From: an archaeon
Lineage (GTDB): Archaea; Iainarchaeota; Iainarchaeia; Iainarchaeales; JANQMZ01
NCBI GenBank assembly: GCA_028279805.1
Contig: JANQMZ010000007.1
Span: 214,399 to 278,398, forward strand
Length of the DNA: 64,000 bases
Direction of reading: 5' to 3'
Shown: positions 2,178 to 38,192 of the stretch, one piece after another
Layout: every line of letters starts with the position of its first letter
Position numbering within the stretch: position 1 is the stretch's first letter
Notes under the pieces: generated by a model
Told to the model about the DNA's origin: nothing
Databases searched by the model: none
The model's input: the letters and a program-made list of their open reading frames with translations, nothing else
Position numbers and translations under genes: made by a program

Positions 2178-3663
2178 ATTCCAGCTGATCCTGCTGGCGA
2201 ACACTGCTATTGAGATTCGATTAAGACATGCAAGTCTGAGAAACAAAGTTATGGTTGTTTCTGGCGAACGGCTCAGTAACACGTGGGTAATCTGCCCTTG
2301 GAAAGAATTAAACCCGGGAAACTGGGCATAATGTTCTATAGGCAAAATATTCTGGAATGATTTTTTGCTAAAAGGTTGTAACACCATGCTGTTACAATGT
2401 CCAAGGATGAGCCTGCGGTGGACTAGGTTGTTGGCGGGGTAACTGCCCACCAAGCCTTTGATCCATACGGGCCTTGAAAGAGGTGGCCCGGAGAAGGGAA
2501 CTGAGATACGGTCCCTAGCCCCACGGGGTGCAGCAGTCGCGAAACCTTTACAATGCACGAAAGTGTGATAAGGGAATCTCAAGTGCTACTTTTTGTGGCT
2601 TTTGCCAACTTTAAAAAGGTTGGCGAATAAGTGGAGGGCAAGATACGTGCCAGCCGCCGCGGTAACACGTACTCCGCAAGTGGTGTTCACTAATATTGGG
2701 CCTAAAACGCCTGTAGCCTGTTCAAAAAGTTTTTGGTGAAATCGGCAAGCTCAACTTGTCGAAGTGCCAAAAATACTGTTGAACTCGAGACCGGGAGGTG
2801 TGAGAGGAATTTTCGGAGTAGCGGTGAAATGTTATGATCCCGAAAGGACCACCAGTAGCGAAGGCGTCTCACAAGAACGGTTCTGACGGTGAGAGACGAA
2901 AGCTGGGGGAGCGACCCGGATTAGATACCCGGTTAGTCCCAGCCGTAAACGATGTGGATTAGGTGTTCTGACACTGTAAAGTGCTGGAGCGCCACAGCGA
3001 AGGCGTTAAATCCACTGCCTGGGGAGTAAGGTCGCAAGGCCGAAACTTAATGGAATTGGCGGGGGCGCACTACAAGGGGTGGATGCTGCGGTTTAATTGG
3101 ATTCAACGCCAGACAACTCACCAGGGTTGACAGCACAATGATGGACAGTCTGAAGGGCTTTCCTGAGGCGCTGAGAGGTGTTGCATGGCCATCGTCAGCT
3201 CGTACTATGAAGCGTCCTGTTAACTCAGGCAACGAGCGAGACCCACGCCACTAGTTGCTATTCACCTATTAGGTGGAGCACTCTAGTGGGACTGCTTGCG
3301 TAAGTGAGAGGAAGGAGTGGGCCACGGTAGGTCTGTATGGCCCGAATGCCCTGGGCTACACGCGGCATACAATGGTTAAGACAATGAGTTTCGAGTCCGA
3401 AAGGACAAGGTAATCCCCTAAACTTAACCTCAGTCCGGATTGAGGGTTGCAACTCACCCTCATGAAGCTGGAATCCCCAGTAATCGCGTGTCATTATCGC
3501 GCGGTGAATAAGTCCCTGCGCCTTGCACACACTGCCCATCAAGCCAGCTGAATAGGGTTTGGATGAGCTGTTTTCATCTGAGGATATCAATTCCATGTCC
3601 TGTAAGGCGGGCTAAGTTGTAACAAGGTGTCCGTAGGGGAACCTGCGGACGGATCACCTCCTT
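2178..3663 (+). rRNA. rrs: 16S ribosomal RNA (archaeal)
   Basis: 5' end ATTCCAGCTGATCCTGCTGG, internal GTGCCAGCCGCCGCGGTAA, 3' end GGATCACCTCCT; approx 1485 nt; ends +-5 nt. Confidence 0.9.
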
Positions 3664-3676
3664 AATTTATCAGCAA

Positions 3677-3704
3677 AGCTGTACGAACCCAAAAAGTTCA
3701 CAGG
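3677..3704 (+). other. 16S rRNA processing stem, 3' strand
   Basis: Complement of 2101-2128. Confidence 0.7.
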
Positions 3705-3771
3705 TAAAAATGGCTGAATATGAGTATTTAAAACATTTAAATGTTTTCAATCAAAAAGTTCTATAGTGTTT

Positions 3772-3802
3772 TATGTGCTATCTTTAGATAGCACCTGAAG
3801 CG
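3772..3802 (+). promoter_or_regulatory. conserved palindromic TATA-containing element upstream of tRNA-Ala (tatgtgctatctttagatagcacctgaagcg)
   Basis: Near-identical 31-nt copy at 36569-36599 upstream of tRNA-Ser(GGA); TATA-like tttagata 42 nt from tRNA 5' end; stem gtgctatct/agatagcac. Confidence 0.45.
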
Positions 3803-3824
3803 GAGTGTCCGTACGCAATCGGAC

Positions 3825-3897
3825 GGGCTCATAGCTCAGCTGGTAGAGCGCCGCCTTTGCAAGGCGGAGGCCACGGGTTCGATCCCCGTTGAGTCCA
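3825..3897 (+). tRNA. tRNA-Ala (anticodon TGC) in 16S-23S spacer
   Basis: GGGCTCATAGCTCAGCTGGTAGAGCGCCGCCTTTGCAAGGCGGAGGCCACGGGTTCGATCCCCGTTGAGTCCA; cloverleaf folds, G3:U70 Ala identity pair, T-loop TTCGATC, no encoded CCA. Confidence 0.9.
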
Positions 3898-4139
3898 TGC
3901 CCGATGTTTCGGGCGGGAACGTGTCATTTGCAATGACACTGGCACTTTGCGGAGTGCAAATTAGACTTAAATCCATTTTTTGGATTTATTGTTCCGTTTG
4001 GAACTGCGGGTCTGTCGCTTTTGACGGACTTAAGTAATTGACGTATGTTTTTTTCAAAACAAGGTTTTGAAATTGTCACTGAAAGTGATATGTAAAGTGC
4101 GCTTGTAAAATAGCGCCGCAAAGCACAGCGTCGGTTTTG

Positions 4140-4193
4140 CATTGGTAGGCAAATTGGTCTATTAATTAGTCATTAATTCAGCGAGTACAAGAG
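4140..4193 (+). other. 23S rRNA processing stem, 5' strand (pairs with approx 7154-7215)
   Basis: gcattggtaggcaaattggtctat...gtacaagag complementary to ctcttgtac...ggtagaccaagcctacaaccaatgc after 23S. Confidence 0.6.
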
Positions 4194-7162
4194 TTAATAC
4201 TAAGCCAGCTAGCGAATAACTTGGCTCAACCACCGATGACAGGCGTGGCAAGCTGCGATAAGCCATGGCGAGACGCATGCAGTCTTTGAACCATGGATTC
4301 CTTAATTATTCCGAAAGGAAGGGTAATGCGGTGAATTGAAGCATCTTAGTAACCGCAAGAAAAGAAATCGAATGAGATACCGTTATTATCAGCGAGAGAA
4401 AACGGTTCAGGTCAAACCGAATCCTTCATTGCAAAATGTTGGAAATGTGGTGTGAGCAGTTTACATCCAAATTTATTAGAAGAAGTTTTCTGGAACGTAA
4501 TGCCATAGAGGGTGAAAGCCCCGTATTTAAAATTTTGGAGGATGATTTTCTGTTTCAAGAGTAGCGTGCATTGGATATTGTGCGCAAACATGGGCATCTT
4601 TAATGCCTAAACCTAAAAATGTGTTGAGTCCGATAGTGAACTAGTACTGTGAAGGAAAGTTGAAAAGCATCCCTGACGGGAGTTTAAAAGCGTTTGAAAC
4701 TAGTTGGTGATTGGCTGATGCAGCGTGAAAGAAACGATTCTCTTAAAAGAAACTTTTTGAAAAATTGGAATCGATAAGAGATGATCAGCGTTGCATCGTT
4801 CGTCTTGAAACACGAGCGAGGGAGTTTGTTGTTGTGGCGAGATTAATTTCATTATGAAAGAAATCATAGCGAAAGCGAATAGTTCGCAGCTTCGGTGAGG
4901 AACAAAGTATGTTCTGCTTTTAGTCACTGCAACAAGACCTGAAAACAGGTGATCTATTCTTGGGCAAGATGAAGCCCTCCTTCCGGGGGGTGGAGGTCTG
5001 AACAGTAGCTAGTCTATCTGCACTGATGATCTGAGAATAGGCGTAATATGCGACTCGAACCTGTCGATAGCAGGCTCCTCTTAAAGTAGCTCTCAGGCTA
5101 GCCTGGTTGGAGAAGCCATATGGTGTAGAGATACTGATTAAAAAGTACTGGGGCGAGAGCCCTAGCTTTTTTGTCAAACTCCAAAGTCATATGGTTTGTA
5201 GAAAACCGGAGTAGGAGCATTCGGGTAAGCCGAATGTTCTTGAGGGGAACAACCCAGTCGTAGGTTAAGGCCCATAAACACCAGTTAAGTGTTAAACCGA
5301 AGGGTGTTCTTATGCTAAAACAGTAGGGAGGTTGGCTTAGAAGCAGCCATCCTTTAAAGAATGCGTAACAGCTCACCTACCTAGGATGAGAGCCCCAAAA
5401 ATAATCCGGGCTAAACTGGTTGCCGATACCTACGGGCACTCATTTTTTGAGTGGTTCAATAAAGAGGTATTCTGATGGAGTTAAAGCAAGGCAGTAATGT
5501 CTTGTGAATCTTTCAGAAAAATGGATCCTCGTGCTAGTATTAACTATTGAGCGGTGAGAATCCGCTCCCCCGAAAGGACAAGGGTTCCTTAGCGCTTATT
5601 ATAAGCTAAGGGTCAGTCGGCCCTAAGCATGTTCATAACTTGAAACATGCAAAAGGGAAACAGGTTCATATTCCTGTACTATTCAAATACGCTTTCGGCA
5701 ACGAATGGCTATTTTTTGACGCTTTGAGCTAGGAAAGTTTTCTTGTCTGAAAACTTAACAAGCATAGTTCTTTGGAGAACTGTCATTGTGAGAAAAAGAA
5801 TAAAGCTTGGAATAGCCGCAAGGTTTTTCCGATGCTCATAGCCCTTGAAAAGAAAAATAGCAAGAATTTTGAATAACCGTACCGAGAACCGAGAAAGGTG
5901 TCCTGGCTTAGGAAGCCAAGGGGTATCAGGATAACAACGTTGAGGGAATTCGGCAAATTAGCCCTGTATCTTTGGTATAAGGGGTGCCTGTTTTGAAGAA
6001 AGCAGGTTTCAATAGCAAAGGGAGTCCGACTGTTTACTAAAAACACAGGTCCCTGCAAGTCTGTAAAGATGTGTATAGGGGCTGACTTCTGCTCACTGCC
6101 AGTACGTGAAACTCCGGTTCAATGGAATTAAGCGCTGGTAAAGAGCGGGCCTAACTCTGAGGCTCTTATGGTAGCGTAATACCTTGCCGGTTTATTGCCG
6201 GCTTGCACCAACGAAGTAACGAGATTCCCACTGTCCCCAACATTGGCCTGATGAACTCGCTGCCCGGTGAACATGCCGGGGACTTCCAACGGGAAGAGAA
6301 GACCCCACGGAGGTTTACTACAGTCTGATGCTGTGATATAATTTTTGGAGTACAGTGTAGATGGGAGTAATCGAAATAATTTCGCTAGGAATTATGGATA
6401 CATCAATGGAACACCATCCTTCAAAAATTGTACCGCTTACTCGTAAGAGGACACCATCAGGTGGGTAGTTGGACTGGGGCGGTACGCCCCTGAAACAGTA
6501 TCAGGGGCGCCCAAAGGTCTGCTCAGACGAGTCGGGAATTCGTCGTAGAGTGCAAGAGCAAAAGCAGGCTTGACCTTGTTTCACAAAGCAAGAAACGAGG
6601 ATTCGAAAGAACGGTCTAGCGAACGACAGTGTGCCTTTTAAAGGGGCCCTGTTCTGACAGTGAACTTACCCTGGGGGTAATTGTGTTGTCGTGGGTAAGA
6701 GTACACATCGACCCCACGGTTTGCTGCTTCGCCGTCGTCTCATGGCATCCTGGGCGTGCATAAGCGCCCAAGGGTGGAGGTGTTAACTCATTAAAGCCGT
6801 ACGTTAGTTGGGTTGAGAACGGTGCGAGCCAGTTTTGATCCTATCTGTTGGAAGTGCAAGGTGACTGAGGGGAAGCTCCAATCAGTACGAGAGGAACGTT
6901 GGGTCGCAGCCACTGGTTTACCAGTTGTTTGACAAAGCATTGCTGGGTAGCTACGCTGTAACTGATAAGGGCTGAAAGCATCTAAGCTCGAAGCAGTCCC
7001 TGAAAAGAGTCACCTATGACTGAATATGTTTTTTCTGCGGAAAAAATATCTAAGTCCGAGAGTTCCCGTAAAAGACGGGTTTGATAGGCTGGAAGTGTAA
7101 GCTAAAAGCTTCGGCGATTAGTTAAGCTCACCAGTACTAAACACTTGAGTTGACTCTTGTAC
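4191..7162 (+). rRNA. rrl: 23S ribosomal RNA (archaeal)
   Basis: 5' region ...ggcaagctgcgataagccatggcgagacgc; 3' region ...ggctgaaagcatctaagctcgaag...ccagtactaaacacttgagttgactc; approx 2970 nt; ends approximate (+-15 nt). Confidence 0.85.
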
Positions 7163-7215
7163 AAAGAACAGTGAGTTTGTGGCAAATTGGTAGACCAAGC
7201 CTACAACCAATGCAT
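7154..7215 (+). other. 23S rRNA processing stem, 3' strand
   Basis: Complement of 4140-4193. Confidence 0.6.
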
Positions 7216-7810: not shown

Positions 7811-8133
7811 GTAAGGTAGTGAAAGGGCAGTTAAGGAATTCTCTGAATTCTTAGGAAAGTCCACCCACTCGTTAAAAATCTCGCAAGAGAAATTCTCGAA
7901 AGGGAGTCCATTGGAACAGAAACGAACTCAGGCAAACTTTGACAATGATAAAAAATTGAGTTGTTTGTTTTTGGGATGAAACGGCTGATGGTTTGAGTGC
8001 AAGTCATTGAGACGCTTAGACGAATGCTGCCAAGATGTGCTTTGTCAAAAAAGCAGGAATCAACAACAGAATGATTCTCGGTTTTTGAAACCGTATCCTA
8101 ACAGAAGGTGGCTTACTCTTCACTGCCTTACAT
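7811..8133 (+). ncRNA. rnpB: RNase P RNA (archaeal type)
   Basis: ORF-free 400 bp gap; CR-I motif AGGAAAGTCC at 7851-7860; CR-V motif ACAGAAGGTGGCTTAC at 8101-8116 with P4 covariation (GTCCACC/GGTGGC); terminal P1 pairing gtaaggtagtgaa / ttcactgccttac; upstream TATA ctttttatac approx 25 nt before 5' end; followed by T-run. Confidence 0.75.
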
Positions 8134-27386: not shown

Positions 27387-27726
27387 TTTTCAATTCCTCT
27401 AAAAATTTTTTAAAAATAAAATTAACCTGTTTTGAAGTTTTTGGAATTACCTTTTTCTTCAAAGAATTCAACTTTTTTTCAGCTTTTACCTTAATTTCTT
27501 TTTTCTTTTTTTCAATTTTTTTCTCTTCCTGTGAAAAAATTTTTTCACGGAATTTAGCATCATTTTTTTCAGCATTAATTCCGACCTGAAGAGCTGATTT
27601 TTTTGCTTTTTCAAGAATTTGAAGTTTTTGCTTTTCAGCTTTTTCAACAATTTTTTGAGCCTGAATCTCAGTTTCCTTTATTTTTTCAAGTGATTCTTCG
27701 CTTGATTGTTTAACCAGTTGAGACAA
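27373..27726 (-). CDS. atpH: A/V-type ATP synthase subunit H (peripheral stalk)
   Basis: 117 aa all-helical K/E-rich, first gene of operon. Confidence 0.6.
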   Translation of the reverse strand: MSQLVKQSSEESLEKIKETEIQAQKIVEKAEKQKLQILEKAKKSALQVGINAEKNDAKFREKIFSQEEKKIEKKKKEIKVKAEKKLNSLKKKVIPKTSKQVNFIFKKFLEELKSVSR

Positions 27727-28123
27727 AATTAATCCCCCAAAACATTGCCAAAATGCTTAAAACAAATGAAAACACAACACGTTTTTAAAGCTTTTTAGCC
27801 GTTTTAAAGCAAAAACAAGCATTATACGGAAAATATATACAAAAAGAAAAAGAAAAAAGTTGTTAGATTCTCTAATTTTTGATTGTTAAAAAGTTTGAAT
27901 TTCAAAATAAAAATTGATAATAAGTTCTTTGAAGACACTATTGACAGCGTCAGAAGTTTTTCGGAATTTTTGACGCTACTTTTTTCAAATTTTTAAGCTT
28001 TCTCCCCCTGAAGCACTGCCCAACATTTTTTTGTTGGGCTGTTTCTTTTTACATTTTTCAGGTTTTTAAAAAAAAGGCTATAAAAACATTATCTTTTTTT
28101 ATTTTTCATCGGGGATTTTTTTA

Positions 28124-30189: not shown

Positions 30190-30266
30190 GTAAACCAGCC
30201 AAATATGCAAACAAAGTAAACCAGTGCTGCCGAAGGCGCACGTTCCCACCCGAAACATCGGGCTAG

Positions 30267-30338
30267 CGGACCCGGAGGGATTCGAACCCTCAACCCACAG
30301 CTTAGAAGGCTGTTGCGCTTCCGTTGCGCCACGGGCCC
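30267..30338 (-). tRNA. tRNA-Arg (anticodon TCT)
   Basis: GGGCCCGTGGCGCAACGGAAGCGCAACAGCCTTCTAAGCTGTGGGTTGAGGGTTCGAATCCCTCCGGGTCCG; good cloverleaf; acceptor stem contains G3:T70 wobble. Confidence 0.85.
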
Positions 30339-33130: not shown

Positions 33131-35362
33131 TTAAGTGCAAGGAGCTGCAGCAGAATCATCAGCTGCTGTTGTATCTTCCGCAATGTAAAAAGTTACATTT
33201 ACATCCAAAGATGTTGTATCCGGTTCATCATCCGGAACAAGAATTGCAATTCCAACATTAATTTTATCATTAGTTGAATCAAGCTGTTCACAAATCTGGC
33301 CTGAATTTCTGCCCAGACCAACAATGTTAAAATCAGTCCAGCCTGTCTGAGCAAAACCACCTTCACAGGAACTAGCCACATTGTTATCTGAAATAAACCT
33401 GAAATAATTCCTGTCAGAACCTCCGCTTGTACCATTCCAGGATAATTGTTGTGCACAAGTGCTGACATCAATATCAACATTTCCGGTATTGGTAATCAAA
33501 AAAGGAGTGTCACTATCTCCATTTTCATCAGAAGCACCGTTGTTTAAAGTAAAAGTCATGGGGCTGTTTGTAACATCAATTGTAACAGTTGAAGCAACTG
33601 CCTGGGTTGTAATTGTTCTGTCAGTTCCCAAGGACGTGTTAGCATCAGCTTTTGTTCCGTTTCCAGAAAATCTTAACTCATAAGCTTGAGCTGTTGTAGT
33701 GCTGTTCACATCCCATTTAGGAGTATAACTTTGATTATAAGCCAAATGGGTTGACTGAGGATTTGCGCCTGAAGTAATATACAAAGGGCTTGTGTTAACG
33801 GTATTCATGTCCCAAAAGTCTGTACATCCCGCGCCAACACAATACTGTAAAGTTGTGTCAACAACTCCACAATTAGCATCATTGCATGTTACTGTTCCTT
33901 CAACCAAAAATTCTTCACTCACATTAATTGTAGTGTTCGCATCAGACGGAGGAGAAGTAATATTAAAACTTAAATTTCCATCCTTTTCAGTGTAAGAAAC
34001 ATTAATGTCAATATTATCCCAAAATGACCTTAAGCCTGTTGGAAAAGAAGTTGGATTTGCAACAGCATAAACACCAAAATCAACATGGTTAATGTCAGCA
34101 GATGTCCAGGTTGTTCCCCACAAATCATTTGTTGCCCCAACAGTTTCACGAATCGGAGTTGTGCTTGCAATACTTGCAGTTGACTTTGTATCACCGGTTG
34201 CTGTTCCCGCTTTAACCAGCTGCAAATCTGTTTGCCAAGTGTTTCCTGTCTGAGTATGCCTTTCAACTCTAACTTCAATTCCGTTAATTTGAGCTCCTAC
34301 AGGAACATCAAAATCAAAATCATCATAAGTTGCTTCTCCTGCAATAGCAACATACCTGTTGGTTGTATTAACATCATCAGAAGTCCACGCATTGTTTGGG
34401 TTATCAACACCGTCGCTTGAAGCTGTTGCAGTCGGATCCTTAAAGCTTCCCGGTTCAGACAATGTTAAAGTTCTGTCTGTTCCCGAAGAATTTCCGGTAT
34501 TTGCCTTTGTTCCGCTTGCCTGTACCCTTAATTCATATGATTGGGCAGTAAAACTTGATTCAACAACCCAGCTTTGAGTAAAACTTTGATTATAACCCAA
34601 ATGCTGGCTCTGAGGATTGTTACCAGAGGATAAAAACAAAGGAGCCGAAGCATCAGAATTCATATCCCAAAAATCAGTGCAACCAGAACCGACACAGTAT
34701 TGTAAATTTGCATCAACAACTCCACAATTAGCATCATCACACGTTACTGACCCTTCAACCAAAAACAAGCTGTTTGTATCAATTGTTGTATTGGCATCAG
34801 CTGACGGAGTAGTAATGCTTGCAGTAAAATTCCCATCATTCTCAGTATAAGAAACACTAATATCAACATCATCCCAGTTCGCAGGATCTCCACTAATAGG
34901 AGCAGTTCTTACTAAACCAACACCAAAGTCTGCGCTGTTAATATCTGCAACGGTTAAAGTTGTTCCCCACATATCCGTGGTTGACCCGGCTGTCTGAGTC
35001 ACATCACTGGTAGAATTAGTTTGAAAGGAACTGGAATCTGTGTTTCCAATAAGTCCTGTGCTATCTCTTAACTGTGCAGTAGTGGTTATGGTTGAAAACC
35101 CTGTAACTTTCCATTCAAGCCTAACCCTGATTCCGTTAATTGTTGCACCAATTGGAATATCAAAACCGAAAGTGTCATAATGACCGGTTTGACCCAAACC
35201 ACAAGTTGTTCTTGAATCATCGGAAGCCCAGGCATTATCAGGACTGGAACAAGTTCCCGAATGAGTTGCTGTCGGATCAGTAAAAGCTGTGTCAGTTGCA
35301 AAAACAAGCAATGCTGAAAATATTAATAAGAATAAAACCATTAACCCCGAAGCATTTTTCAT
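33131..35362 (-). CDS. large secreted Thr/Ser/Asn/Asp/Gly-rich surface protein with two approx 285 aa tandem repeats
   Basis: 743 aa; signal peptide; repeated blocks DPTAT...NAW(A/T)SDD...INGI(R/E)VR... and VTC(D/N)DANCGVVD..LQYCVG(S/A)GCTDFWDMN...; Cys pairs. Confidence 0.6.
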   Translation of the reverse strand: MKNASGLMVLFLLIFSALLVFATDTAFTDPTATHSGTCSSPDNAWASDDSRTTCGLGQTGHYDTFGFDIPIGATINGIRVRLEWKVTGFSTITTTAQLRDSTGLIGNTDSSSFQTNSTSDVTQTAGSTTDMWGTTLTVADINSADFGVGLVRTAPISGDPANWDDVDISVSYTENDGNFTASITTPSADANTTIDTNSLFLVEGSVTCDDANCGVVDANLQYCVGSGCTDFWDMNSDASAPLFLSSGNNPQSQHLGYNQSFTQSWVVESSFTAQSYELRVQASGTKANTGNSSGTDRTLTLSEPGSFKDPTATASSDGVDNPNNAWTSDDVNTTNRYVAIAGEATYDDFDFDVPVGAQINGIEVRVERHTQTGNTWQTDLQLVKAGTATGDTKSTASIASTTPIRETVGATNDLWGTTWTSADINHVDFGVYAVANPTSFPTGLRSFWDNIDINVSYTEKDGNLSFNITSPPSDANTTINVSEEFLVEGTVTCNDANCGVVDTTLQYCVGAGCTDFWDMNTVNTSPLYITSGANPQSTHLAYNQSYTPKWDVNSTTTAQAYELRFSGNGTKADANTSLGTDRTITTQAVASTVTIDVTNSPMTFTLNNGASDENGDSDTPFLITNTGNVDIDVSTCAQQLSWNGTSGGSDRNYFRFISDNNVASSCEGGFAQTGWTDFNIVGLGRNSGQICEQLDSTNDKINVGIAILVPDDEPDTTSLDVNVTFYIAEDTTAADDSAAAPCT
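33605..35290. repeat. internal tandem duplication (period approx 855 bp) inside the surface-protein gene
   Basis: Homologous plus-strand shadow ORFs at 33792-33995 and 34617-34850 end 855 nt apart; protein repeats align. Confidence 0.6.
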
Positions 35363-35863: not shown

Positions 35864-36388
35864 TTAACCTTTGGTTATTTCAACAATTTTCACTGAAAAA
35901 ATTAAAGTTTTTCCGGCTAAAAAATGATTAAAATCAACTTTAACAGTTTGATTGTCAACTTCAACAATTTTTCCCCTTTGACCATTTAAAACAAGTTCAG
36001 TTCCGATTTCCGGAACAATTCCCTGGTCTTCAAACTGGCTTAATGGAACTCCAACAATTAAAGAAGAATCAGTTTCACCATAACCGTCTTTCGGAGCAAT
36101 AACCAAATCTTTTTCCTCATCAAGCTTTAATCCAATAACACCATTATCAAAACCTTTAATCATTTGACCTGCTCCCGCCTTAAACTCTAAAGGGTCACGC
36201 CCTTCACTTGAATCAAAAACAGAACCGTCTTCCAGTTTTCCGGTATAATGAACTTTAATAGTGTCACCAGATTCAACAATTTTACTCATATCAACATCAA
36301 CTCCTTTATCCGTTTCAACATTACCCTGATTTGAAGTGCATCCCAACACCAACAAAAACAATCCTAAAATTAAAACAATTTTTTTCAT
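35864..36388 (-). CDS. FKBP-type peptidyl-prolyl cis-trans isomerase, lipobox-type signal peptide
   Basis: FKBP core GDTIKVHYTGKLEDGSVFDSS...LEFKAGAGQMIKGFDNGV; N-terminal MKKIVLILGLFLLVLGCTS; annotated start 36454 rejected (extension overlaps conserved hairpin element). Confidence 0.75.
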   Translation of the reverse strand: MKKIVLILGLFLLVLGCTSNQGNVETDKGVDVDMSKIVESGDTIKVHYTGKLEDGSVFDSSEGRDPLEFKAGAGQMIKGFDNGVIGLKLDEEKDLVIAPKDGYGETDSSLIVGVPLSQFEDQGIVPEIGTELVLNGQRGKIVEVDNQTVKVDFNHFLAGKTLIFSVKIVEITKG

Positions 36389-36462
36389 AAAATGAAATAA
36401 CTTACAAAACATTTTTAAGTCCCAGTGAAACTGGGACGTTCGCAGCCGGAACACCGGCTAAG

Positions 36463-36546
36463 CGCAGGGGACGAGATTTGAACTCGCGCGTTCCGAAGAA
36501 CACAAGCTTTCCAGGCTTGCGCGTTAAACCACTCCGCCACCCCTGC
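36463..36546 (-). tRNA. tRNA-Ser (anticodon GGA), long variable arm
   Basis: GCAGGGGTGGCGGAGTGGTTTAACGCGCAAGCCTGGAAAGCTTGTGTTCTTCGGAACGCGCGAGTTCAAATCTCGTCCCCTGCG. Confidence 0.85.
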
Positions 36547-36568
36547 AAACCGATTGCATAATTGATTT

Positions 36569-36599
36569 TATGTGCTATCTTTAAATAGCATCTGAAGCG
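36569..36599 (+). promoter_or_regulatory. second copy of palindromic TATA-containing element (tatgtgctatctttaaatagcatctgaagcg), 42 nt upstream of tRNA-Ser(GGA) on the opposite strand
   Basis: 29/31 identical to 3772-3802; TATA tttaaata. Confidence 0.45.
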
Positions 36600-36682
36600 T
36601 TCCGTCCGGACGCAACCGCGCTCTCAAGAGCGCAAGTGCTATCGCAGATAGCACGCGGATTGTCCCTACGCAATGGGACAAG

Positions 36683-36766
36683 CGCAGAGAGAGAGATTCG
36701 AACTCCCGCGTTCCGAAGAACACCAGGTCTCAAGCCTGGCGCGTTAAACCACTCCGCCATCTCTGC
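36683..36766 (-). tRNA. tRNA-Ser (anticodon TGA), long variable arm
   Basis: GCAGAGATGGCGGAGTGGTTTAACGCGCCAGGCTTGAGACCTGGTGTTCTTCGGAACGCGGGAGTTCGAATCTCTCTCTCTGCG. Confidence 0.85.
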
Positions 36767-36933
36767 ATCGCCTGTGTTCAGGCGGCAAACTTGCTGCTTT
36801 CAGCAGCAAATCCGAAGCTTTGCTTCGGAAGTCCCAATGCAATTGGGACGTTCTCACGCGGAACACCGCGTAAATGGACAATTATTGCCCTAATGCTTAC
36901 CAATTAAAGAATTTAAGTGTTTTAAATACTTCT

Positions 36934-38046
36934 ATGAAAAAGGATTTTCTTGTTTTAGAGGATAAACTGGAGCGAATTACTGATGAACTGGATACTGATT
37001 TGTCAAAATATATTACTCCGGTTAATGCTATAAGTGAAGAGAAAAAGTTTTTTGAAGCATTGGAAAAAGGCGAGGAATATAATCCTGTTTTTGAATATTT
37101 GCCAAAAAACCCGCTTTATTCTCATTTGAAAATGAGCCCTGAATATAAGGAAAAATTAACAGAATTAACTTTGATTCAGACAGGGGAAAAAGGTGTGTCA
37201 AAATTGTTAGGTAAAAAAAAACAGGATTTGATTAAAAAAATGGAATTTATCAGAATGATTGGAACTGAAAAGTTCGGGGAACAATCAGTCGAATTTTTTG
37301 GAAAGCCAAGCAAAAAACTTGTAAAAGATTCAATTAAAGAATTGAAAAAAAAAGTTAAACCGGATGAAAAAAACATTTCAGCTGAAAAAATGGTTTCAGA
37401 ATTAAAAAATTTTTTAAAAAAGAAAAAAATTAAGTTTAATGTTTTAATTGAGGAAAAAATGTCAGCAGATGCAGCTGTTTTAAATTCTGTTCACGAATTA
37501 AGAATCAGAAAAGATGCAATGTTTTCAGAATTGGATGTTAAAAGATTAGAAATTCATGAAATTGAAACACATATTTACAGGCATTTGAATGGTCACAGGC
37601 AACCGTATAAACTTTTTTTAACAGGCACTGACAGAAACTGGTTGATTACAGAGGAAGGGTTGGCTGTTGCAAATGAAAAACTGTTTAATTGTTGCAGTTC
37701 TGCCAGGTTAAAAAAATATGCAGGCAGGGTTTTGTCCGTTCATAAAAGTCTGAATAATTCTTTTTATGATGTTTTTAAATATTTGGAAAAATTTTTTGAA
37801 CCGGAACAGGCTTTTAGAATTGCTTTGCGTTCAAAAAGAGGAACTTGTATTACTGAAAATCCGGGAGGTTATACAAAAGATTATTTTTATTCAGAAGGAA
37901 TTAAAAGAATTAATAAATTTTTAAAAAAAGGAAACATTGAAGACTTGTATTATGGTAAAATTTCAATTGAAGATATTAATGAATTTAAATCAATTCCCGA
38001 ACTTGTTAAACCAAAATATTTACCTGATTACAAAAAGGTTTTGTAA
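36934..38046 (+). CDS. DUF1704-family protein (MATCAP-like putative metallopeptidase; HExxxH + EEGLA motifs)
   Basis: HEIETH (HExxxH) followed approx 30 aa later by ITEEGLAV (QEGLA-like); start moved to Met 36934 because 36874-36933 overlaps hairpin array. Confidence 0.5.
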   Translation: MKKDFLVLEDKLERITDELDTDLSKYITPVNAISEEKKFFEALEKGEEYNPVFEYLPKNPLYSHLKMSPEYKEKLTELTLIQTGEKGVSKLLGKKKQDLIKKMEFIRMIGTEKFGEQSVEFFGKPSKKLVKDSIKELKKKVKPDEKNISAEKMVSELKNFLKKKKIKFNVLIEEKMSADAAVLNSVHELRIRKDAMFSELDVKRLEIHEIETHIYRHLNGHRQPYKLFLTGTDRNWLITEEGLAVANEKLFNCCSSARLKKYAGRVLSVHKSLNNSFYDVFKYLEKFFEPEQAFRIALRSKRGTCITENPGGYTKDYFYSEGIKRINKFLKKGNIEDLYYGKISIEDINEFKSIPELVKPKYLPDYKKVL

Positions 38047-38192
38047 TAATGCGAACGAAGTAAGCAAGTGTCACTGAAAGTGGCACGCCGATTGCGCCTA
38101 GGCAATGGCGCTGGGACAGAAAGTAATAAATAATCCAAAATCCTACTTTTTCCGTAAGTTTTGCCTTACTTATAGCTGAAAAAGGGGATTTT

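Follow-up and report, generated by a model that had tools for sequence, protein, structure and literature searches.

Two families of hairpin elements at tRNA and rRNA gene boundaries in a Diapherotrites-like archaeon

The tRNA-Ser locus

Two tRNA-Ser genes, set in an array of short GC-rich hairpins, lie on the minus strand of the 64-kb stretch of archaeal DNA analysed here (the window). Together with 3.7 kb to its left and 9.3 kb to its right, ~77 kb were in view, or ~9% of the genome (853-kb contig). The features of the locus, with covariance model scores for the two element families that we call T-modules and L-elements, are as follows:

36419..36459 (-), T-module A, 3' trailer of tRNA-Ser(GGA), 68.7 bits
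36463..36546 (-), tRNA-Ser(GGA), found by ARAGORN and by Rfam (60.8 bits)
36572..36621 (+), L1, second hairpin partly degenerate, L model 38.9 bits
36618..36633 (no strand assigned), orphan GC hairpin GCGCUC-UUGA-GAGCGC (minus-strand writing) between L1 and L2
36636..36679 (+), L2, antisense to the tRNAs, L model 61 bits
36683..36766 (-), tRNA-Ser(TGA), found by ARAGORN and by Rfam
36769..36809 (+), T-module C, diverged and on the opposite strand, 34.3 bits, E = 3e-6
36811..36829 (no strand assigned), orphan GC hairpin UCCGAAGC-AAA-GCUUCGGA (minus-strand writing) between the convergent C and B
36831..36871 (-), T-module B, 5' start of the tRNA-Ser(TGA) leader, 65.5 bits
36911..36930 (-), promoter-like 20-mer AGTATTTAAAACACTTAAAT with a TATA-type box inside

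The two tRNA genes are 84–88% identical, and the ends of the duplicated 88-nt tRNA-Ser unit coincide exactly with the borders of the flanking elements. Module A begins 3 nt (CUU) past the discriminator of tRNA-Ser(GGA), and directly beyond it stands TTAAAAAT, ~25 nt upstream of the start codon of an FKBP gene. At the other end, module B lies ~40 nt downstream of the promoter-like motif and stops 64 nt short of the 5' end of tRNA-Ser(TGA). The 20-mer is identical in 19 of 20 positions to 3723–3742 (+), upstream of tRNA-Ala, and is presumably the promoter of the tRNA-Ser operon. Between the modules, C starts 2 nt off the 5' boundary of tRNA-Ser(TGA), L2 abuts the 3' end of the same gene and L1, on the other strand, precedes tRNA-Ser(GGA) by 26 nt; neither ARAGORN nor Rfam detected a plus-strand tRNA between L2 and C. 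Two open reading frames that run into the hairpin array, 36636–36893 (+) and the GTG-extended 35864–36454 (-), are mechanical artefacts of ORF calling.

Scanning for perfect hairpins with a stem of at least 6 bp and at least four G/C positions in the 5' arm returned 28 in the window, ten of them within 36419–36871 (binomial p ~4e-15), which bears out the array of at least ten GC-rich hairpins claimed in the original prediction. The 500-nt region also folds far better than its shuffles (z = -7.5 and -9.0 on the two strands). A CRISPR-like array was rejected on account of the irregular spacing. All six further hairpins that had been listed are present: those at 36770–36783 and 36791–36809 together make up module C, those at 36636–36654 and 36662–36679 make up L2, and most other hairpins in the array are likewise L-elements. 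What had been read as a GNRA loop on the minus strand of 36791–36809 is instead a UGAAA pentaloop, or a GAA triloop on an 8-bp stem, and not a canonical GNRA tetraloop. The sequences and coordinates given for A and B were correct, as were their 80% identity and compensatory stem changes: the direct repeat (36417–36461 and 36829–36873) is 82% identical over 45 nt and 80% over the 41-nt module, with AGCCGG/CCGGCU in A against ACGCGG/CCGCGU in B for hairpin 1, and GUCCCAG/CUGGGAC against GUCCCAA/UUGGGAC for hairpin 2.

Recurrence and covariation of the T-modules and L-elements

On the tRNA strand, a T-module is built of a 6-bp stem with a UGUU loop, a GNGAAC linker and a 7-bp stem starting with GU. 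Module A reads AGCCGG-UGUU-CCGGCU / GCGAAC / GUCCCAG-UUUCA-CUGGGAC, and the diverged module C reads CGCCUG-UGUU-CAGGCG / GCAAAC / UUGCUGC-UUUCA-GCAGCAA. Within the 64 kb there are exactly four UGUU hairpins followed by GNGAACGU, three of them 1–3 nt past a discriminator (tRNA-Ala, tRNA-Arg and tRNA-Ser(GGA)). The covariance model built from the four strong copies recovered those four and copy C and nothing else in the window, which holds at least five T-modules. The copies of both families outside the tRNA-Ser locus are:

3775..3824 (+), L-element in the tRNA-Ala leader, L model 59.5 bits
3899..3939 (+), T-module after tRNA-Ala in the 16S-23S spacer, 66.9 bits
4073..4116 (+), diverged L-type element upstream of the 23S processing stem, 52.5 bits
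30224..30263 (-), T-module directly after tRNA-Arg(TCT), 60.3 bits
38068..38111 (+), L3, L model 63.1 bits
1–31 of the flanking contig L196, L-element abutting the 5' end of tRNA-Glu, sense to it

At least four of the five T copies end within 4 nt of a tRNA boundary (p ~1e-10), so their closeness to tRNAs is not due to chance. A and B do bracket the tRNA-Ser tandem as the original prediction described, but three more modules of their type, for which it had advised a search, lie in the 64-kb window; the two are not a unique functional pair and the bracketing is incidental. The additional copies also contradict its suggestion of an att-like footprint, in which A and B would be what remains after a mobile element had entered or left the tRNA-Ser locus. 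Transfer RNA genes are common integration targets, and archaeal att repeats contain the 3' part of a tRNA, hardly differ from each other and surround an element that carries an integrase. The direct repeat around tRNA genes is the likeness here, whereas all of these defining features are absent: the repeat overlaps no tRNA gene and holds no tRNA sequence, its copies share only 80% identity and their stem changes are compensated, the 371 nt from A to B contain two tRNAs and hairpins but no integrase, and three more copies sit at unrelated loci, after tRNA-Ala (32 kb off), after tRNA-Arg (6 kb off) and, for the fifth copy, on the other strand. Nothing in the region resembles plasmids, and its sole similarity to phages is the tRNA-Ser gene. 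A plasmid or phage origin was dropped for that reason, and we reject the att footprint as having a negligible probability. Derivation of the module from the 3' half of a tRNA was rejected too, since the five modules align with four tRNAs no better than shuffles do and there is no partial Rfam tRNA match, although UGUUC...GAACG recurs as the variable-arm stem of tRNA-Ser.

Selection on structure, which had been proposed from A and B, is borne out across the five T copies, which are paralogs of a single genome rather than sequences from different species: all 13 pairs stay paired (64/64 cells) with double changes in 11 of them, and this was reached by none of 500 shuffles. Among the four strong copies, variable columns make up 17 of 26 paired positions compared with one of ten in loop 1 plus linker (Fisher p = 0.007), and loop and linker are nearly invariant in all five. 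This pattern argues strongly that T-modules are under selection on structure together with specific unpaired bases. Each folds into two hairpins at -18 to -25 kcal/mol (-24.8 kcal/mol, z = -4.7 for A; -23.1 kcal/mol, z = -4.8 for B), with z between about -4.2 and -4.8 for four copies and a weaker -2.2 for the tRNA-Arg copy. The latter has a G.U pair in hairpin 1 on the tRNA strand and the sole interruption among the module stems, a 1-nt bulge; it agrees with the tRNA-Ala copy in 24 of 25 positions over hairpin 1 plus linker. A single nucleotide separates the tRNA-Ala discriminator from its module, and B alone among the sense copies has no tRNA ahead of it.

Runs of at least five T are lacking directly downstream of the structures, the sequences there being UUAAAAAUGUUUUG (A), UGGUUUACUUUGUUUG (Arg) and UUCCGAAG (B), and a terminator scan listed no site at the modules; an intrinsic or oligo-T terminator was therefore rejected. 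The tRNA-Glu gene, which has no T-module, carries T8 directly past its 3' end. An archaeal origin-recognition box, suggested by CCAGTGAAAC in module A, was dropped as it is not common to the other copies.

L-elements normally abut the 5' ends of stable RNAs. L2 reads GUGCUAUC-GCA-GAUAGCAC / GCGGAUU / GUCCC-UACGCAAU-GGGAC, the second hairpin in the tRNA-Ala leader is GUCCG-UACGCAAU-CGGAC and ends at tRNA position -1, and the pre-23S copy reads UUGUCAC-UGAAA-GUGAUA / UGUAAAGU / GCGCU-UGUAAAAU-AGCGC. The UACGCAAU loop is the invariant unpaired part, 96.7% of cells are paired, and four of five pairs in hairpin b show double changes. L3 has no adjacent tRNA; it stands between a MATCAP-family gene (stop codon at 38046) and a 304-aa gene (38193), co-oriented with both. 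The rRNA processing stems in the window pair ~2100–2128 with 3677–3705 (16S) and 4138–4158 with 7181–7214 (23S).

The first hairpin of some L copies, an AT-rich palindrome in L1, bears a TATA sequence (TTTAGATA in the spacer copy, TTTAAATA in L1) and is centred 28.5 nt upstream of a conserved ACGCAA, near the archaeal TATA-to-start spacing. Such palindromes could act at the DNA level, by binding a dimeric DNA-binding protein or as promoter or insulator of the stable-RNA genes; the L palindrome would then serve as a promoter, perhaps in both directions, and the T-module would form a roadblock separating a tRNA gene from the promoter that comes next. The position of L1 ahead of tRNA-Ser(GGA) and that of TTAAAAAT ahead of the FKBP gene fit this, and a symmetric site would suit occurrence in either orientation. 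We nevertheless consider control at the DNA level improbable. L2, L3 and the pre-23S copy have no TATA in the first hairpin (their loops are GCA and UGAAA), and as it is absent in three of the five copies with a readable hairpin, the palindrome was dropped as a general promoter. The stems change freely with compensation, preserving the pairing and not a recognition sequence, and the conserved bases are the unpaired, asymmetric ones. Furthermore, G.U pairs are read on the sense strand of the tRNA-Arg module, L3 and the pre-23S L copy; they make sense only in RNA and therefore favour folding at that level.

The modules could also be independent small RNA genes, released as stable 40–45-nt RNAs acting in trans. 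Their fold is compact and stable with conserved single-stranded bases, and an RNase Z cut would free a trailer starting 1–3 nt ahead of hairpin 1. The suggestion of an undescribed small structured RNA in the original prediction is right as far as the lack of any Rfam match goes. There is nothing to favour an independent gene over a cis element, however, and we think such a gene very improbable. The modules have no promoter of their own, their sole single-stranded stretch is 6 nt long, and one copy is inside the rRNA spacer. A box C/D or H/ACA sRNA was rejected after reading five T and six L copies, none of which has a C box or an internal loop, CUGA being present in only two L copies.

Proposed precursor spacers or possible mobile palindromes

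The explanation that fits best had been among those first proposed, namely that the elements belong to the leaders and trailers of precursors. We suggest that T-modules and L-elements are cis-acting structured spacers of the precursor transcripts of stable RNAs in this DPANN (Diapherotrites-like) archaeon, and give this an about even chance of being correct. In favour of it are the recurrence at fixed places, with a module 1–3 nt after three tRNAs and B between the promoter-like motif and tRNA-Ser(TGA), the covariation, the stable folds and the non-random orientation, since the three T copies in trailers and the two L copies that abut a tRNA (tRNA-Ala and tRNA-Glu) are all sense to that tRNA. 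We infer that the modules are transcribed, and the context fits this, since B is downstream of the 20-mer shared with the tRNA-Ala leader and no run of at least five T follows A or the Arg copy. Each module would fold on its own into GC-rich hairpins while the AT-rich precursor is being made, placing the hairpins 0–4 nt away from where RNase P and RNase Z cut. This could keep the flanks from invading the tRNA cloverleaf, fix the positions of the processing sites, and leave the neighbouring RNA (the next tRNA, pre-23S or downstream mRNA) hairpin-capped and resistant to exonucleases. The invariant unpaired bases (the UGUU loop and GNGAAC linker in T, the UACGCAAU loop in L) may be the contact for a putative protein or nuclease.

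Several observations weigh against such spacers. L2 and C, the flanks of tRNA-Ser(TGA), are on the wrong strand, L1 too is antisense to the tRNAs, L3 is not beside a tRNA, B is not a trailer, and neither family was found in 96 kb of relatives. Covariation among paralogs would arise equally in selfish palindromic repeats that need their hairpin. Neither element is required for tRNA maturation, given that tRNA-Glu has no T-module and tRNA-Arg no L-element, and the hairpin ending at position -1 of tRNA-Ala might hinder RNase P rather than help it.

Selfish palindromes are the main rival, and in our view a possible but doubtful one. As REP/BIME- or MITE-like, short non-autonomous repeats, the elements would be spread by a hairpin-recognising transposase or by recombination and pile up in the harmless flanks of stable-RNA genes, with hairpin and unpaired bases kept for the mobilising enzyme on single-stranded DNA and any effect on RNA a by-product. 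Both orientations are indeed present (C, L1 and L2 antisense to the tRNAs), the copies cluster in one array where C and B are convergent partners around the 36811–36829 hairpin, subfamilies exist (the Ala/Arg pair and the 80% identical A and B), L3 is between protein genes, and the L covariance model gives a weak score to T read as its reverse complement, as if the two came from one common hairpin type. Absence from the relatives (96 kb) and from the scanned public collections is typical of young, lineage-specific repeats, and a Logan contig terminates within an L-element, as occurs at repeats. Bacterial REPs are likewise hairpin repeats of 20–40 bp with family-typical loops, often as dimers (PMC3733652). 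On the other hand, the ~77 kb in view hold only five T and six L copies, nine of these 11 in tRNA or rRNA transcription units, while most of the ~70 other intergenic regions in view are empty. The offset to the tRNA ends is fixed at 0–4 nt, all five copies at tRNA-Ala, tRNA-Arg, tRNA-Ser(GGA) and tRNA-Glu are in sense orientation, and G.U pairs occur on the sense strand. A GTAG/CGTC head is inconsistent, with no such tag in hairpin 1 and CGUC (A and B), CGUG (Ala and Arg) or CUUG (C) heading hairpin 2. Lastly, neither a Pfam scan of 20 ORFs of the window nor the precomputed annotation of L143, L196 and L001 with Pfam domains showed a transposase.

More speculatively, the elements could form a lineage-specific RNA punctuation system, or represent hairpin repeats homing precisely to the borders of tRNA genes, whatever their orientation, as the first of this kind in Archaea; we regard this as a tentative and rather unlikely proposal. 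As punctuation, two-hairpin signals would mark the points at which tRNA, rRNA and mRNA are separated in the polycistronic transcripts that a reduced DPANN genome makes. A putative protein or nuclease would read the T signal by its UGUU loop and GNGAAC linker and the L signal by its UACGCAAU loop. The arrangement L2–tRNA-Ser(TGA)–C, with both flanks opposite to the tRNA strand, hints at boundary-homing repeats.

Known elements, database searches and relatives

In a survey, REP/BIME families (GTAG- and CGTC-tagged) were reported from bacterial phyla only, and bacterial REPs have been proposed to be RNA stabilisers or terminators (PMC3733652). Like them, our elements are short (20–40 nt) GC-rich hairpin repeats with family-typical loops in non-coding, probably transcribed DNA, and look lineage-specific, with both orientations and clustered partners; the module hairpins measure 16–20 nt and are joined into 40–50-nt units. 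Unlike them, the unit is two hairpins with a conserved linker and no consistent GTAG/CGTC head, in the ~77 kb in view it is fixed 0–4 nt from tRNA ends and not spread over extragenic DNA, no RAYT or IS200-IS605-type transposase was seen among the ORFs and annotations scanned from the ~9% of the genome in view, and the host is an archaeon. The 3' inverted repeats of chloroplast and bacterial transcripts, reportedly described by Stern and Gruissem in 1987 as elements for processing and stability, probably act by blocking 3'-5' exonucleases and setting the ends. They too are stable stem-loops just past the mature 3' end with no terminator U-tract, but are gene-specific and share no common sequence family, whereas here one module recurs at several tRNA genes. 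In the DPANN archaeon Nanoarchaeum equitans, dicistrons of a tRNA and a C/D box sRNA are reportedly co-transcribed (Randau, 2012). These resemble our loci in having a small structured RNA directly beside a tRNA that is, or here would be, released by tRNA processing enzymes; the modules differ in lacking C/D or C'/D' boxes, a guide region and a K-turn. Archaeal rRNA operons have leader-trailer helices and bulge-helix-bulge processing stems (PMC11404451), which likewise give structure to the sequence flanking a stable RNA within one precursor. By contrast, the modules are local hairpins and not long-range pairings, and have no 3-nt bulges. The bulge-helix-bulge motif (two 3-nt bulges with a 4-bp helix between) was rejected as the stems are uninterrupted but for the 1-nt bulge in the Arg copy and, judged by sequence, the modules do not appear to be splicing-endonuclease substrates.

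To our knowledge, the production and maturation of stable RNAs in DPANN archaea are little understood. Non-coding sequence is scarce in their small AT-rich genomes, yet here ~450 nt of GC-rich hairpins surround two tRNA genes. With one covarying module 1–3 nt off the RNase Z site and another where RNase P cuts, the elements would give a handle on precursor processing in this group, or on end protection or transcript separation. Should they prove mobile, Archaea would have a rare example of REP-like repeats, and one that unusually prefers tRNA borders. Whichever reading is true, the T and L covariance models can be used directly on the full genome and its sister genomes.

T and L match no known RNA family: in Rfam 15 only the two tRNAs pass at the locus, the other best scores being at most 22 bits against thresholds of 50–190, and our literature search found no description of such elements. 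A pattern scan of genome contigs with CGRTGTTYCGNNNGNGAACGT gave chance matches only among the matches listed, mostly in bacteria (GC 39–75%), viral-contig scans for the L and T patterns gave chance matches only, and a metagenome-contig scan that anchored the tRNA T-loop to the module gave 21 matches, about the number expected by chance, none with the hairpin. Neither covariance model found a match in 96 kb from seven loci of Diapherotrites relatives, and synteny walks in relatives via the FKBP, GuaA and MATCAP homologues encountered no tRNA-Ser cluster; the covariation that the original prediction had proposed to seek in relatives was found among the paralogous copies, while the relatives' loci (96 kb) are without the element. 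The two families look lineage-specific. The closest relative, with a GuaA 68% identical, is represented by a 3.6-kb contig. The gene order MATCAP-GuaA-H+-PPase is kept in Diapherotrites, and the tRNA-Ser(TGA) gene of one relative has a plain TATA promoter and an oligo-T tail.

Hairpin modules at the tRNA-Ser pair

The hairpin array at the tRNA-Ser pair is real, with solid statistics behind it. Of 28 GC-rich perfect hairpins in the window, ten lie inside 36419-36871 (p about 4e-15), and on both strands the predicted fold of this region beats shuffled sequence by 7-9 standard deviations. The sequences originally given for A and B, the two-hairpin repeats near the pair, were confirmed, and the claims of a direct repeat (here 82% identity) and of compensatory stem differences were borne out; all the other hairpins listed with them are present. 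The minus-strand loop at 36791-36809, taken for a GNRA loop, is actually UGAAA, or GAA on an 8-bp stem, and not a canonical GNRA tetraloop.

Stable-RNA genes (Rfam/ARAGORN) and hairpin elements (T-modules and L-elements)
2178-3662: 16S, archaeal rRNA operon
3825-3897: tRNA-Ala, between 16S and 23S
3899-3939: T-module, directly after tRNA-Ala
4073-4116: diverged L copy, upstream of the 23S processing stem
4187-7160: 23S, archaeal rRNA operon
7815-8127: archaeal RNase P RNA
30224-30263: T-module, directly after tRNA-Arg
30267-30338, minus: tRNA-Arg(TCT)
36419-36459, minus: T-module A
36463-36546, minus: tRNA-Ser(GGA)
36572-36621, plus: L1, partly degenerate
36618-36633: orphan hairpin
36636-36679, plus: L2 (hairpins 36636-36654 and 36662-36679)
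36683-36766, minus: tRNA-Ser(TGA)
36769-36809, plus: T-module C (hairpins 36770-36783 and 36791-36809)
36812-36828: orphan hairpin
36831-36871, minus: T-module B
38068-38111, plus: L3, between the MATCAP-family gene and the next downstream gene
L196 (Logan contig) 1-107, some 3.6 kb to the left of the window: tRNA-Glu(TTC) with L-type leader hairpin, AACCG-UACGCAAU-CGGUU, and T8 tail

A and B had been seen as a bracketing pair, but they are not unique, and three more copies exist in the window. Read on the tRNA strand, a T-module consists of a 6-bp stem capped by a UGUU loop, then a GNGAAC linker and a 7-bp stem that starts with GU, ends with AC and has a loop of 4-5 nt. A UGUU hairpin followed by G.GAACGT occurs four times in 64 kb, at A, at B and after tRNA-Ala and tRNA-Arg (3899-3939, 30224-30263). 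The covariance model R1, built from these four copies and run on the window without filters, recovered its inputs at 60-69 bits and found a fifth copy, C, on the plus strand (34 bits, E = 3e-6), with its start 2 nt away from the 5' boundary of tRNA-Ser(TGA). No other match in the window reached E = 0.01 (next best about 0.05 and 0.09), and R1 gave zero matches in the adjoining sequences (9.3 kb to the right, L143; 3.7 kb to the left, L142). The first hairpin of each of the three trailer copies starts 1-3 nt past the discriminator base.

Across the five copies, all from one genome, 64 of 64 pair cells hold standard pairs, with 11 of 13 pairs changed on both sides; none of 500 shuffles equals this pairing and slid controls reach at most 41%. 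Variable columns in the four strong copies comprise 17 of 26 paired positions, against 0/4 in loop 1 and 1/6 in the linker (Fisher p = 0.007). Structure and particular unpaired bases have therefore both been kept. Every copy is predicted to fold into exactly two hairpins (-18 to -25 kcal/mol). The invariant UGUUC (loop) and GAACG (linker) are mutually complementary (36444-36443 region), and also form both variable-arm strands of both tRNA-Ser genes (UGUUC-UUCG-GAACG; about 36500-36515 and 36720-36735); overall similarity between T-modules and tRNAs is not significant.

L-elements and orientation

A second two-hairpin family, the L-elements (hairpins a and b), accounts for most hairpins left over in the array. 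The copy in the tRNA-Ala leader reads GUGCUAUC-UUUA-GAUAGCAC / CUGAA / GCGGAGU / GUCCG-UACGCAAU-CGGAC, and its 3' end is position -1 of the tRNA. The tRNA-Glu copy stops 1 nt short of its tRNA; the Logan contig breaks within it, as an element with further copies in the genome would lead one to expect. Four of the five pairs of hairpin b have changed on both sides, around a nearly constant 8-nt loop. The L-element model gives reverse complements of T-modules 13-18 bits, at 3892-3942 (-), 36761-36812 (-), 36416-36453 (+) and 36828-36865 (+), and both families contain a 7-8-bp GUG...CAC hairpin whose loop is of UGAAA/UGCAA type; they may be of common origin.

The elements adjoining tRNA-Ala, tRNA-Arg, tRNA-Ser(GGA) and tRNA-Glu are all sense to their own tRNA. 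The exception is tRNA-Ser(TGA), on the minus strand, which is flanked on the plus strand by L2 and C; the order L, tRNA, T matches that at tRNA-Ala exactly. Between L2 and C, no tRNA could be detected on the plus strand. The 88-nt duplicated unit of the two tRNA-Ser genes ends precisely at element borders. The tRNA may have flipped via the inverted repeat of its acceptor stem or been replaced by a tRNA-Ser copy in inverse orientation, or the elements may have inserted without regard to orientation. L1, L2, C and L3 run in the direction of the plus-strand genes after them, and A and B in that of the tRNAs, so that, provided both strands are transcribed, there could be a transcript on which each element is sense. 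G.U pairs are few, and those that occur (tRNA-Arg hairpin 1, L3 hairpin a, pre-23S hairpin a) are without exception on the sense strand of the element itself, an argument for folding as RNA rather than for a role in DNA alone. A promoter or insulator acting at the DNA level, which we consider improbable, would suit the L palindromes with a TATA but not those without.

Function and origin of the elements

Of the three original readings, leader or trailer of a tRNA precursor fared best: the fixed offset from tRNA ends and the sense orientation at four tRNAs stand, while the function is one we infer. We give roughly even credence to T and L elements being cis-acting structured spacers of stable-RNA precursors, favoured by that placement, by covarying stems with fixed unpaired bases, by sense-strand G.U pairs and by the lack of terminators. 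The hairpins would fold autonomously and insulate the tRNA, would frame the cleavage sites of RNase P and RNase Z and would leave neighbouring RNA with hairpin-capped ends; the invariant loop and linker may be a protein contact. The main rival, a REP/BIME-like selfish palindromic repeat, is possible but less probable. It accounts for antisense copies, clustering, subfamilies, L3 and the absence from relatives, but fits poorly with fixed offsets and few copies away from stable-RNA genes; moreover, there is no consistent GTAG/CGTC head (PMC3733652), and no transposase is visible (20 window ORFs against Pfam, plus annotation of L143, L196 and L001). The spacer and selfish-repeat readings are compatible, not exclusive.

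No Rfam family matches T or L elements. An independent small RNA is quite unlikely. The att-like footprint is very unlikely indeed, A and B not being a unique pair; plasmid similarity was absent and the sole phage match was the tRNA-Ser gene itself. Pattern scans of genome contigs and metagenomes gave chance matches only, among the matches listed, as did scans of viral collections. Models R1 and R2 (L-elements) found no match in seven loci (96 kb) of Diapherotrites relatives, reached via FKBP, GuaA and MATCAP homologues, where a plain TATA promoter precedes the sole tRNA, a tRNA-Ser(TGA), and an oligo-T tail follows it. Since about 77 kb here contain 11 elements and those 96 kb none, the elements look lineage-specific. 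What began as one repeat pair becomes, judged from sequence, two covarying families of hairpin modules, undescribed so far and associated with stable-RNA genes in a single DPANN lineage; they belong with kinds of element already known, as structured precursor flanks or as REP-like repeats.

Transcription units and genomic setting

A TATA-type box lies in a 20-nt sequence, AGTATTTAAAACA(T/C)TTAAAT, that 3723-3742 (+) and 36930-36911 (-) share at 19/20 identity, upstream of the tRNA-Ala leader in the 16S-23S spacer and of B and the tRNA-Ser operon. This sequence looks like a promoter common to both units; B would then lie about 27 nt from the start of a leader of 130 nt, and the rRNA operon would have an internal promoter. 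Downstream of tRNA-Ala, the sense strand of the spacer carries T6 (3976-3981) and T7 (4048-4054); T runs of such length normally stop archaeal RNA polymerase. These runs and the internal promoter-like motif suggest that 16S, tRNA-Ala and 23S may be transcribed in pieces. No run of at least 5 T follows module A or the tRNA-Arg module; A is followed directly by TTAAAAAT, about 25 nt ahead of the FKBP start codon. tRNA-Glu, without a T-module, has a convergent gene opposite and T8 straight after its 3' end.

The flanks of 16S (2100-2128 with 3677-3705) and of 23S (4138-4158 with 7181-7214) are complementary and make up processing stems of the usual archaeal kind. 23S is followed, 650 nt downstream, by the RNase P RNA gene; the whole window, operon included, lacks a 5S rRNA gene.

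The FKBP gene adjoining the tRNA-Ser pair is on record in both the 853,278-bp NCBI contig and the Logan assembly of SRR20820740. FKBP, GuaA and the MATCAP-family protein have their closest homologues at 45-68% identity, the named ones mostly Candidatus Diapherotrites, so the host is a poorly sampled DPANN archaeon. The order MATCAP-family protein, GuaA, H+-pyrophosphatase is kept in Diapherotrites relatives (L191, L193 vs 36934-57529), but the tRNA-Ser cluster and FKBP gene upstream are not, which puts the hairpin-rich cluster at a synteny break.

Protein-coding DNA in the window is about 30-35% G+C. A very A/T-rich 737-bp stretch (27387-28123) without an ORF of at least 120 aa contains a bacterial-style hairpin and T-run at 28018-28050 (GCCCAACA-UUUUUU-UGUUGGGC, then UGUUUCUUUUU); its Rfam matches are weak, sub-threshold and driven by the hairpin. 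The secreted-looking 743-aa protein at 33131-35362 (-) has an internal duplication of ~300 aa and gives no Pfam match above threshold; it is probably a surface protein specific to this lineage.
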